The position numbers and the translations under genes were made by a program. A stretch of DNA of 64,000 bases, from positions 1 through 64,000 of IMG/VR virus record IMGVR_UViG_3300015177_000008; one strand, written 5' to 3'. Under the pieces are notes generated by a model that saw only the letters and a program-made list of their open reading frames with translations, had not been told where the DNA came from and made no database searches. Positions 55,905 to 57,060 of this stretch are shown here, one piece after another. Positions within the stretch are counted from its first letter, which is position 1; each line of letters starts with the position of its first letter. Source of the stretch: a virus. Its lineage: Duplodnaviria > Heunggongvirae > Uroviricota > Caudoviricetes.

Positions 55905-56498
55905 TTACTGATTATTGTAAACAAAACCAATATCTTTCTTGTGAGGCGTATCTGCTGCGGAAAAAGCTGCGATCTTCGCCAGTCGATCACAGATTTCATT
56001 TTCACGATGCCCGGCGTGGCCTTTAACCCACTTCCAGCGAACATTATGTCGACTGGCAGCCTCATCCAGACGCTTCCACAGATCAACATTCTTTACTGGT
56101 TTTTTATCAGAAGTCATCCATCCATTACGTTTCCACCATTTCATCCACTGTGTCATGCCGTTTTTCAGATACTGGCTATCAGAGTGCAAAATAACGTTGC
56201 ATGGATATTTCAAACGCTCCAGCCCGATAAGTGCCCCCATCATCTCCATGCGGTTATTGGTGGTGCTATGAAAACCATCTGAGAACTCGCGTTCCTCTCC
56301 ACGATACTGGAGAACGATACCGTAACCGCCTGGGCCACCCGGATTTTTAAGGCAAGAGCCATCACTGAAGATTTTCACGGTTTTAAGCTGGGGATTGAAC
56401 TCTACGACAGGCGTTGTGGGATTGGTGCGGGGAGAATTTTTGTTTTTGGCTTTTTTGCGAGTTTTTTCTTGCGATCGGGCTGGTGTCTTCGTCGTCAT
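55905..56498 (-). CDS. ribonuclease HI paralogue with basic N-terminal extension
   Basis: Close match to E. coli RnhA motifs (FTDGSC..NPG.GGYG, TTNNRME, HAGH.ENE); start set at ATG 56496-56498 with AGGAG RBS. Confidence 0.85.
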
Positions 56499-56559
56499 AT
56501 AAACTCCTGAATCAAGCGCCGCGCCGATTTTTTTCCTCGCGCGTGCGCACACGCGTGCG

Positions 56560-57060
56560 TGTTAATAATTATTAAAATAAACAAATTACTTCCCAGAACA
56601 GGTTTTTATAAACCTGAACTGAACGAACGAAGTGAGTGAAGTTCACCTCGAACGAAGTGAGAGGTTGTCTTTTCAGGTAATACTCTCCCAGGGAGGTGAG
56701 TATAAAAATCCCTCACCAACCTGGTCGTTTCATAACCTGAAAAGTTATGGCCTAAGTCTACTGCCAGCTTAGACTTGGGAAGTTATGGATGACAGCACCC
56801 CAGAACCGAGATCTTCCCACACTTTATGAAGGGGAGTACTGGATTCAACCTCTCGAAACACCCCAGACTCGACAATCATAAAGTGACCCTTGTCTCCGCT
56901 CACTTTGGTTCCCCCTTCCCCGACACCTAAACGGCACCGGTTCTACGCTGGTAGTGAGCTTTTTTAAACCTGACGCCAGTGACGCTTACCCCCACCCATC
57001 AGGTCGAGTCTCCAGTCTACGACTGGAAACTATCAGATCTTAGCACTTACAATTCATTTT
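56560..57060. other. ORF-free, hairpin-dense region (candidate structured RNA or origin-like region)
   Basis: No ORF of 60 aa or more; multiple stem-loops (CAGGTTT..AAACCTG, GGTGAG..CTCACC, AAGTCTA..TAGACTT), direct repeat GAACGAAGTGAG x2, AT-rich tract. Confidence 0.25.

Follow-up and report, generated by a model that had tools for sequence, protein, structure and literature searches.

Between the RNase HI gene (rnhA) and a gene for a 76-aa protein of an SSU5-type phage-plasmid lies a 584-bp gap (56499..57082) with no convincing open reading frame (ORF), and we conclude with high confidence that this gap is a real structured RNA gene. Positions refer to the window, the whole stretch of 64,000 nucleotides that was analysed (positions 1 to 64,000 of the IMG/VR virus record IMGVR_UViG_3300015177_000008). 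Judged by sequence similarity, the window is part of an approximately 108-kb SSU5-type phage-plasmid of E. coli: the 1.6 kb around the locus is 100% identical to E. coli plasmid p108_MLI108-3 (NZ_CP117002.1), 97% identical to the Escherichia phages PhiR41_1 and Cyrano (96.6% for Cyrano), and 78–82% identical to Salmonella phage SSU5 and Klebsiella phage-plasmids. A previous interpretation of the letters without database searches (the sequence-only reading) had offered a small RNA or structured leader as one possibility for this region. That possibility is supported: the structured RNA encoded in the gap is conserved, shows covariation, and is transcribed independently. More specifically, and with confidence only somewhat better than even, we favor a stand-alone, sigma70-transcribed minus-strand RNA of approximately 455 nt that acts in trans in the plasmid-prophage state, probably via a protein partner. 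The observations described below establish the conservation, the structure, the strand, the conserved promoter, the lack of a conserved ORF, and a discrete, abundant transcript; the trans action, the exact ends, and the partner of the RNA are what we infer from them.

The sequence-only reading had described an ORF-free, hairpin-dense region with short direct repeats and an RNase HI gene downstream on the minus strand, and this description holds throughout. The minimum free energy of the gap is −212.6 kcal/mol for the minus strand (z = −6.4; 0 of 100 shuffled sequences fold as well) and −174.1 kcal/mol for the plus strand (z = −5.9). The direct repeats include a perfect 13-mer, CGAACGAAGTGAG, found at 56624-56636 and again at 56649-56661, and a partial third copy is also present; by our own arithmetic, approximately 0.004 exact 13-mer repeats are expected in 700 nt. 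The rnhA gene begins where the gap ends.

Conservation of the gap was examined in 80 relatives gathered via their RNase H in IMG/VR, of which 59 unique versions, covering the upstream gene through the whole of rnhA, were aligned. Identity between pairs averages 0.90–1.00 across approximately 57010..56625, compared with approximately 0.8–0.85 in the flanking genes and approximately 0.6 at the edges of the gap. Between lineages, the third-codon positions of both flanking genes are only 46–55% identical and are thus saturated, whereas the core of the gap is 90–96% identical between those same lineages and codon positions 1 and 2 of rnhA are 91–96% identical. Across genera, the gap is 89–93% identical among plasmids of PLSDB. 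Each lineage retains private substitutions, and the core has therefore evolved slowly and vertically rather than in a recent sweep. On these comparisons, the core is under strong purifying selection, similar in strength to that on codon positions 1 and 2 of rnhA, and its loops and junctions are as conserved as its stems.

A consensus fold was obtained with RNAalifold from 23 diverse sequences, and it contains 127 core pairs in 18 helices, with 99.3% of the alignment cells forming a pair. This provides the comparative support for RNA folding that the sequence-only reading had proposed as a check. Compensatory changes on both sides were found at 12 pairs, as opposed to a shuffle mean of 7.8 ± 1.4 (2 of 500 shuffles reach 12), and the number of cells with double changes was 73 versus 21 in shuffles (0 of 500 reach 73). 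When the pairing partner was slid by 1–3 columns as a control, only 1–3 double-change pairs remained. The compensatory changes are distributed over six helices (1, 2, 3, 8, 14, and 18), and extension to 83 unique sequences raises the count to 13 pairs and confirms helix 2. In helix 1, the sequence differs wholly between lineages and the pairing is always kept. G-U pairs are used in some sequence by 36 of the 127 pairs, and canonical pairing amounts to 99.3% in the minus sense compared with 87.3% in the plus sense; selection therefore acts on the minus-sense transcript and not on DNA hairpins. The G-rich block within 56898..56959 is invariant, and the stretch around the 13-nt repeats is almost entirely invariant in all 23 aligned sequences. 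A G-quadruplex was considered and rejected, given that one of the four G tracts is broken in the Klebsiella-type and L034 relatives and is paired in helix 2.

The RNA has a promoter of its own in front of the first helix. In an otherwise variable stretch, columns G37, T38, T41, A42, A45, and T46 of alignment A1 are invariant and correspond to the TG and TAnnAT of an extended −10 element. A −35/−10 pair occupies the same place in every lineage (TTTAAA-17-TAAAAT in SSU5 and TTTACG-17-TAGAAT in the Klebsiella type). The promoter has 8 of 12 consensus matches and was not returned by a consensus scan. Transcription is predicted to begin at 57030/57031, on the first base of helix 1, and the promoter lies 6–7 nt ahead of this hairpin. 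A palindrome immediately upstream of the −35 element, degenerate here and perfect in SSU5-type relatives, may be an operator. At the other end, the sequence suggests that the RNA terminates at approximately 56575, in an AT/U-rich spacer. The features of the locus are listed in Table 1.

Table 1. Features of the RNA locus and its borders, in the direction of transcription
Feature	Position	Strand	Evidence and remarks
Upstream 76-aa gene	57083..57313	-	ORF; bounds the gap on its upstream side
Degenerate copy of palindrome GGTAAGTACTTACC	57066..57079	-	A1 columns 3-16; just upstream of −35
Sigma70-type promoter of the RNA	57037..57065	-	−35 TTCATA 57065..57060; 17-nt spacer; TG 57045..57044; −10 TAAGAT 57042..57037
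Noncoding RNA, approximately 455 nt, 18 helices with large multi-helix junction	56575..57030	-	Conservation, covariation, RNA-seq
Helix 1, 5'-terminal hairpin	57008..57030	-	5 of 8 pairs changed on both sides
Helix 2, long G-rich bulged hairpin ACCUGAUGGGUGGGGG...CGUCAGGU	56969..57005	-	3 compensatory pairs, 100% pairing
Helices 3-5 and invariant single-stranded stretch GGGGAAGGGGGAACC	56898..56959	-	Pair 131:188 UA to CG in 9 sequences
Almost invariant central domain with multi-helix junction (helices 6-16)	56659..56896	-	RNAalifold consensus
13-nt direct repeat, two copies (RNA sense CUCACUUCGUUCG)	56624..56661	-	Repeat family D5
Helix 17, formed by the 13-nt repeats	56624..56654	-	Pairs in consensus fold
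Helix 18, 3' hairpin UUCAGUUCAGGUUUAUAAAAACCUGUUCUGGG	56592..56623	-	Pair 476:486 UA to GC in 8 sequences
AT/U-rich, poorly conserved spacer AAGUAAUUUGUUUAUUUU... after 3' hairpin	56563..56591	-	Conservation 0.78-0.85, indels
GC-rich rnhA-proximal block	56516..56562	-	Alternating tract, A run 56528-56534, GC-rich CGGCGCGGCGC
rnhA Shine-Dalgarno AGGAG	56504..56508	-	Sequence; GGAG conserved in alignment A1, columns 609-614
RNase HI gene rnhA	55905..56498	-	ORF; 197 aa; 594-bp coding sequence annotated in relatives

Expression of the RNA in lysogens can be read from published data on E. coli LF82 and the phage-plasmid Cyrano, where a feature named CYRAN_81 was listed as a 'moron' expressed 12-fold above prophage background (PMC9928086). 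This 135-nt feature falls inside the RNA core. In the 10 RNA-seq samples, CYRAN_81 reaches 108–1300 fragments per kilobase per million (fpkm), with rnhA at 1–27 and the upstream gene CYRAN_80 at approximately 5–50 (PMC9928086, supplementary table). These data bear on the RNA-seq check named in the sequence-only reading, with the core 7- to 106-fold above rnhA in every one of the 10 samples. The level of CYRAN_81 follows that of the integrase (r = 0.94) and the repressor (r = 0.83) across these samples, and that of rnhA less closely (r = 0.62). Expression peaks in exponential growth and inside macrophages (PMC9928086), where the level rises approximately 10-fold. The ratio of rnhA to the RNA ranges from approximately 0.01 to 0.14 across five LF82 conditions, with no conditional read-through into rnhA there. 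Separately, the same data contain a 555-nt 'hypothetical protein', CYRAN_43, beside the integrase and repressor at approximately 7,000 fpkm, as well as CYRAN_40 at approximately 150 fpkm; both are further candidates for unrecognised RNAs or genes expressed in lysogeny.

Under the preferred reading, host sigma70 RNA polymerase would start at the conserved extended −10/−35 promoter and the transcript would open with a protective 5' hairpin, fold into 18 helices with a nearly invariant junction, and end at or just past the 3' hairpin, so that little transcription would proceed into rnhA. The RNA would accumulate while the element is a plasmid prophage and would be recognised in lysogeny by a conserved protein or host machine, as a scaffold, decoy, or ribonucleoprotein component, rather than act by simple antisense pairing. 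We propose trans action via a protein partner because the loops are conserved, no extended antisense target was found on the element, and the RNA is insulated from rnhA.

Several observations weigh against such a stand-alone RNA. The LF82 gene counts may not be strand-specific. No variation at all is seen in helices 6, 7, 12, and 17 and next to none in helices 15 and 16, so pairing in these parts is a thermodynamic prediction only. Helix 18 is not a canonical intrinsic terminator, as AAGUAA stands between the stem and a broken U-rich run, and this U run is missing in the Klebsiella-type relatives. In an Hfq-dependent small RNA, a U tail would be expected immediately behind the stem of a rho-independent terminator. 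It could be that the 3' end arises by processing, or that the RNA is the stable 5' part of an rnhA leader. In nearly all relatives, moreover, the gene that immediately follows the RNA on its strand is rnhA. Finally, UGGGAAG and the 13-mer each occur twice and allow mutually exclusive, attenuator-like pairings.

These last points are the substance of the main rival explanation, which we consider unlikely but deserving of serious attention and in which the RNA would act in cis, as a leader or attenuator of rnhA and the genes that follow. Alternative pairings would select termination at helix 18 or read-through, and the abundant species of approximately 450 nt would be the terminated leader. More specifically, two alternative partners are available to CUUCCCA (A1 columns 306-312), namely UGGGAAG at 269-275 and UGGGAAGU at 494-501 (inverted repeat I12); the latter pairing overlaps the 3' strand of helix 18, and the 13-mer repeat presents a second two-way choice. 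The steep fall in expression between the core and rnhA would also be expected of a terminated leader. However, the promoter works in lysogens, where rnhA and the other genes of the module remain at background, and rnhA tracks this general background in level and rise, much like CYRAN_80, rather than the RNA. Read-through is a few per cent at most in all 10 LF82 samples. The approximately 450 nt of near-invariant sequence far exceed the need of known attenuators, the RNA is kept where rnhA is destroyed, and there is neither a conserved leader peptide nor a match to a riboswitch or leader family of Rfam. The competing pairings themselves comprise 7–8 nt, a length expected by chance in 460 nt by our own arithmetic, and all of their bases are invariant and thus carry no covariation signal.

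The RNase HI gene next to the RNA requires separate consideration. Its ORF has a maximal extent of 55905..56552 (-), and the ATG at 56498 is the likely start because relatives annotate a 594-bp coding sequence and AGGAG lies 6 nt upstream. The product matches Pfam RNase_H (PF00075) with 152.6 bits (E = 9.8e-45; residues 40-178, profile positions 3-140 of 141), and its residues 38-181 align end to end, catalytic motifs included, with E. coli RNase HI (RnhA) structures of the PDB (E ~ 1e-63). In the alignment to 4ly7_A, the DGS, NNRME, SDSQY, and GHAGH..NE.CD motifs are conserved, and the catalytic carboxylates and His motif (D10, E48, D70, H124, and D134 of E. coli) are present in the predicted enzyme. 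It differs from the E. coli enzyme by an extra 37-aa N-terminal extension (residues 1-37), a lysine/arginine-rich, low-complexity basic tail, and by its location in a replisome and nucleotide-metabolism module. The sequence-only reading had recognised the RnhA-like enzyme and its basic extension correctly. Its term accessory paralogue is misleading, given that this RNase HI belongs to the element's own replisome kit, where its role is presumably primer removal.

The same reading had placed the locus in an accessory region, which likewise does not stand. The locus lies inside a long minus-strand module for DNA replication and nucleotide metabolism of the SSU5-like phage-plasmid and not in chromosomal accessory DNA. 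Annotation of the element includes a RepB replicon, ParB, and head and tail genes, together with a complete replication kit of DnaE, a DnaB-like helicase, primase, ligase, a 5'-3' exonuclease, and a DnaQ-like exonuclease. NrdAB, ThyA, DHFR, Dam, and RNase HI are encoded in addition.

The RNA adjoins rnhA in essentially all SSU5-type relatives, and three Klebsiella-type contigs separate the fates of the two: the RNA is intact and rnhA is cut after approximately 10 codons by an inserted JukA/JukB cassette. This anti-phage defence cassette (L074, L075, and L076 of IMG/VR, at approximately 580-2330 of each locus; PADLOC E = 6e-65 and 3.5e-12) replaces rnhA codons ~11-92 and immediately follows the intact RNA gene. 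No such RNA accompanies RNase HI genes of more distant phages (38–49% identical), which are preceded directly by coding genes, with one short divergent gap. Two further IMG/VR loci (L065 and L066) encode, in another phage setting, an RNase H with approximately 90% identity across residues 24-183; these genes are apparently fragmented and occur without the RNA and without the N-terminal tail. No evidence was found of RNase HI acting on the RNA; the enzyme's gene is a neighbour of the RNA, not a demonstrable partner.

An origin at which RNase H processes primer RNA had been the other proposal of the sequence-only reading. In its most explicit form, an RNA-primed (R-loop) origin, a pre-primer like ColE1 RNA II would remain hybridised near 56516-56562 and cleavage by RNase HI would prime lytic synthesis. 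We regard this as very improbable. The likeness to ColE1 is loose and consists of a long, folded RNA whose transcription heads for a purine run beside GC-rich DNA: the size of approximately 455–530 nt and the heavy folding resemble RNA II (555 nt), and the RNA has G runs and a downstream purine run, GAGGAAAAAAA, followed by GC-rich DNA, comparable with GGAAAAA and then CGCC at the ColE1 origin in our reading of the complementary strand. An RNase HI gene adjoins the RNA, while in ColE1 the enzyme is supplied by the host, and Cyrano is present at 5.5 copies per chromosome (PMC9928086). Nevertheless, a blastn search of the gap (word size 11) against 72,556 plasmids returned 687 records, all from SSU5-type genera, and no ColE1-type similarity. 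Neither an antisense unit like RNA I nor a conserved antisense promoter was found, and the sole plus-strand promoter-like site (57024-57053), situated in a variable stretch, faces away from the RNA. The 76-aa neighbour is not Rop-like, being modelled as three helices with no PDB fold match. The putative hybrid zone has no G-over-C skew, and there is no GC-skew inflection at the locus. Within 56301-57300, no DnaA or integration host factor (IHF) consensus was found and GATC is neither enriched nor clustered, and the element's RepB replicon is approximately 17.5 kb away. Moreover, the RNA is retained where rnhA is inactivated and is abundant in a non-lytic state. A resemblance to a presumed ColE1 origin motif was also discarded: GCGCAGAAAAAAAGG proved not to be the ColE1 origin, and GCGCAGAAAAAAAGGATC lies in ColE1 on the side of the RNA I terminator and RNA II promoter and not at the origin. 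A theta origin of the iteron/DnaA type was rejected as well, with only two 13-mer repeats and the same lack of DnaA and IHF sites, of skew change, and of a nearby RepB. As for a retron, the sequence-only reading had noted that no reverse transcriptase is present, and none appears in the PGAP annotation of the 108-kb element, leaving a retron unsupported. The label 'Reverse Transcriptase 3' in Cyrano is attached to the RNase H coding sequence itself and probably reflects the name of an RNase H-like domain rather than a polymerase.

A DNA-level element, such as a protein-binding array or a packaging or recombination site with incidental transcription, merits even less credence. In its favor, approximately 66 nt are almost entirely invariant and include both 13-mer direct repeats, spaced 25 bp apart, the 5' edge of the RNA locus has an operator-like palindrome, and a recombination junction occurs at the A run in Buttiauxella. 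However, substitutions keep the pairing on one strand only, via G-U intermediates, and the compensatory changes in six helices also weigh against a DNA site, for which some 400 bp with nearly every base fixed would be unusual. The Buttiauxella gaviniae copy (L155, 4780-5165) is itself a recombination remnant in a different element; it retains only the 3' two-thirds of the RNA element, ends right after the A run, and is joined in frame to the end of a 387-aa ORF that, judged by its N-terminal motifs, looks like a metallophosphoesterase.

A small protein gene, either the 44-aa ORF of CYRAN_81 (56769..56903, -) or another short ORF, can be dismissed with near certainty: the 44-aa ORF is carried as a coding sequence in the annotation of phage Cyrano, is intact in 14 of 22 relatives, and is the one joined in frame in Buttiauxella, but it is disrupted by 1–2-nt indels in 7 of 23 aligned sequences despite conserved DNA, its variable sites are split 10:7:8 across codon positions, its GTG start has no visible upstream Shine-Dalgarno sequence, and conservation continues for approximately 300 nt past it. 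No ORF of at least 25 aa is intact in all 22 relatives (the best in 15 of 22), and the unrecognised small protein that the sequence-only reading had named among the outcomes that would refute it finds no support. A type I toxin mRNA (hok-like) was rejected, with no conserved ORF and with 30–44-aa ORFs that are not hydrophobic by inspection, as was a leader peptide, since the aligned relatives do not retain the MGGGKRHWRQV ORF.

The RNA belongs to no family that we could name. The covariance-model scan envisaged by the sequence-only reading was conducted with Rfam 15 (5 kb surrounding the locus, and the element by itself at E <= 10) and gave chance matches only, with no family at or near its gathering threshold. 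The families covered include 6S, CsrB, tmRNA, RNase P, ROOL, GOLLD, OLE, raiA, riboswitches, and hok/sok, and the best matches in the gap score 11.9–21.3 bits against thresholds of 45–93, all of them to implausible families. ARAGORN found no tRNA or tmRNA in the window, and the search for antisense targets across the whole 108-kb element gave chance 12-mers at most. PGAP annotates nothing at the RNA locus in 233 E. coli records, and one record annotates the region as a 'hypothetical protein'. In the searchable literature, we found no paper that gives the sequence, an RNA at this position, or noncoding RNAs of phage-plasmids.

Among 5,426 complete E. coli genomes, 232 carry the RNA, in almost every case on a plasmid; in PLSDB it is present on 687 plasmids, 310 of which are from Klebsiella. 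The remaining PLSDB hosts are Escherichia, Enterobacter, Salmonella, Citrobacter, Cronobacter, Shigella, Kluyvera, and Raoultella. It is also found in 12 phage records, an exact 24-mer occurs in 73 IMG/VR loci and in 3 of 185,579 species-representative genomes, and a 20-mer search retrieved 54 metagenome contigs, many of approximately 110 kb. Application of nhmmer to the more distant RNase H loci returned nothing, and all recovered copies score at least 504 bits; therefore, these data contain no distant relatives and no extra covariation was gained.

We tentatively suggest, as a possibility that we hold to be more doubtful than the preferred reading, that the RNA is the founding member of a new class of large, complex-folded RNAs, of the rank of OLE, ROOL, and GOLLD and specific to SSU5-type phage-plasmids of Enterobacteriaceae, with a near-invariant junction domain of approximately 240 nt that performs a lysogenic job other than antisense. 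If this is true, the job could be assembly of a ribonucleoprotein with host or phage proteins, sequestration of a host factor, or catalysis, with an effect on maintenance, immunity, or host physiology, including inside macrophages.

Some further observations concern the borders of the RNA and its surroundings. Downstream of the 3' hairpin, positions 56538-56561 form a 24-nt perfectly alternating purine-pyrimidine tract of the CA/CG type (RNA sense CACGCACGCGUGUGCGCACGCGCG), which by its sequence would be prone to form Z-DNA. In A1 columns 551-601, relatives that have lost the palindrome (L068-L070) still show the alternation, and the A run that follows varies in length from 5 to 9 between relatives. 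The GC-rich block as a whole could be the 5' untranslated region of rnhA or a hairpin. Upstream, the 76-aa neighbour has no Pfam match and only 29 close, clade-restricted homologues; its AlphaFold2 model is a small three-helix protein (predicted local distance difference test score 80) for which Foldseek against the PDB gives no match with E < 9. Beyond it, a Dam-type adenine methyltransferase gene (57480..58006, -) is split into two ORFs, with Pfam Dam on both halves, and is marked as frameshifted by PGAP; it is intact in PhiR41_1, Cyrano, and SSU5. The palindrome-like motif GGTAAGTACTTACC has 8 matches in the window at up to 3 mismatches, compared with 1.24 expected (0 of 100 shuffles reach 8), located at 55892-55905, 58021-58034, 50921-50934, 37084, 21547, 20040, 18124, and 1698. 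The copies that were checked lie at junctions of co-directional genes, and one, the degenerate copy at 57066-57079, lies just upstream of the −35 element of the RNA; the motif could serve as an operator or as a phage-specific signal. A conserved intergenic leader (55760..55904, -) separates rnhA from the following gene, which starts at 55759. Besides a GC-rich hairpin, this leader has GGA in the loops of two hairpins, GUCAGGAUGAC and GUUCCAGGAUGGAAC, and once more at the Shine-Dalgarno sequence of the 'BRCT-domain' gene downstream. Its match to the CsrB family is weak (20.5 bits, E = 0.0097), and its sequence looks like a CsrA-binding site for translation control. Cargo is present at approximately 40990-49060 and 61630-62110 of the window (75207-83269 and 95845-96321 of the record) and comprises host-like metG (methionyl-tRNA synthetase), apbC, a 4.2-kb inverse autotransporter gene, and the trimethoprim resistance gene dfrA51.

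SSU5-type phage-plasmids are common in clinical Enterobacteriaceae and carry resistance genes, here dfrA51. The RNA is among the most constrained sequences examined on these elements, yet it is left blank by PGAP. It is also among the more highly expressed lysogen features listed for LF82, and higher still inside macrophages (PMC9928086). The result corrects the tempting notion that an RNase H gene beside hairpins must signify an origin or a retron, and the RNA is a candidate for structural work and for the genetics of phage-plasmid maintenance and lysogenic conversion.

Among known systems, the immunity RNAs c4 of P1/P7 and CI of P4 share with this RNA a plasmid-prophage setting, a promoter of their own, and production in the lysogenic state; the level of the RNA here follows the repressor and integrase. 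Those RNAs measure approximately 70–80 nt and pair as antisense RNAs with sites in their own operon, whereas the RNA described here is approximately six times longer and no complementary target for it was found on the element. 6S and CsrB/RsmB offer a working analogy, that of an abundant, structured, trans-acting RNA whose conservation would reflect a conserved host protein partner. However, this RNA has neither the central bubble of 6S nor a repeated array of GGA loops and matches neither covariance model, and the sole weak match to CsrB lies outside of it, downstream of rnhA. The closest likeness in form is to the orphan RNAs OLE, ROOL, GOLLD, and raiA, which are hundreds of nucleotides long, have a multi-helix junction, are highly conserved even at unpaired positions, and are carried on mobile elements; ROOL and GOLLD are often carried on phages. 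In contrast to these classes, the RNA described here matches no family of Rfam 15, resides on phage-plasmids of Enterobacteriaceae, forms a narrow family with 87–100% identity, and has a defined sigma70 promoter from which it is expressed in lysogeny.

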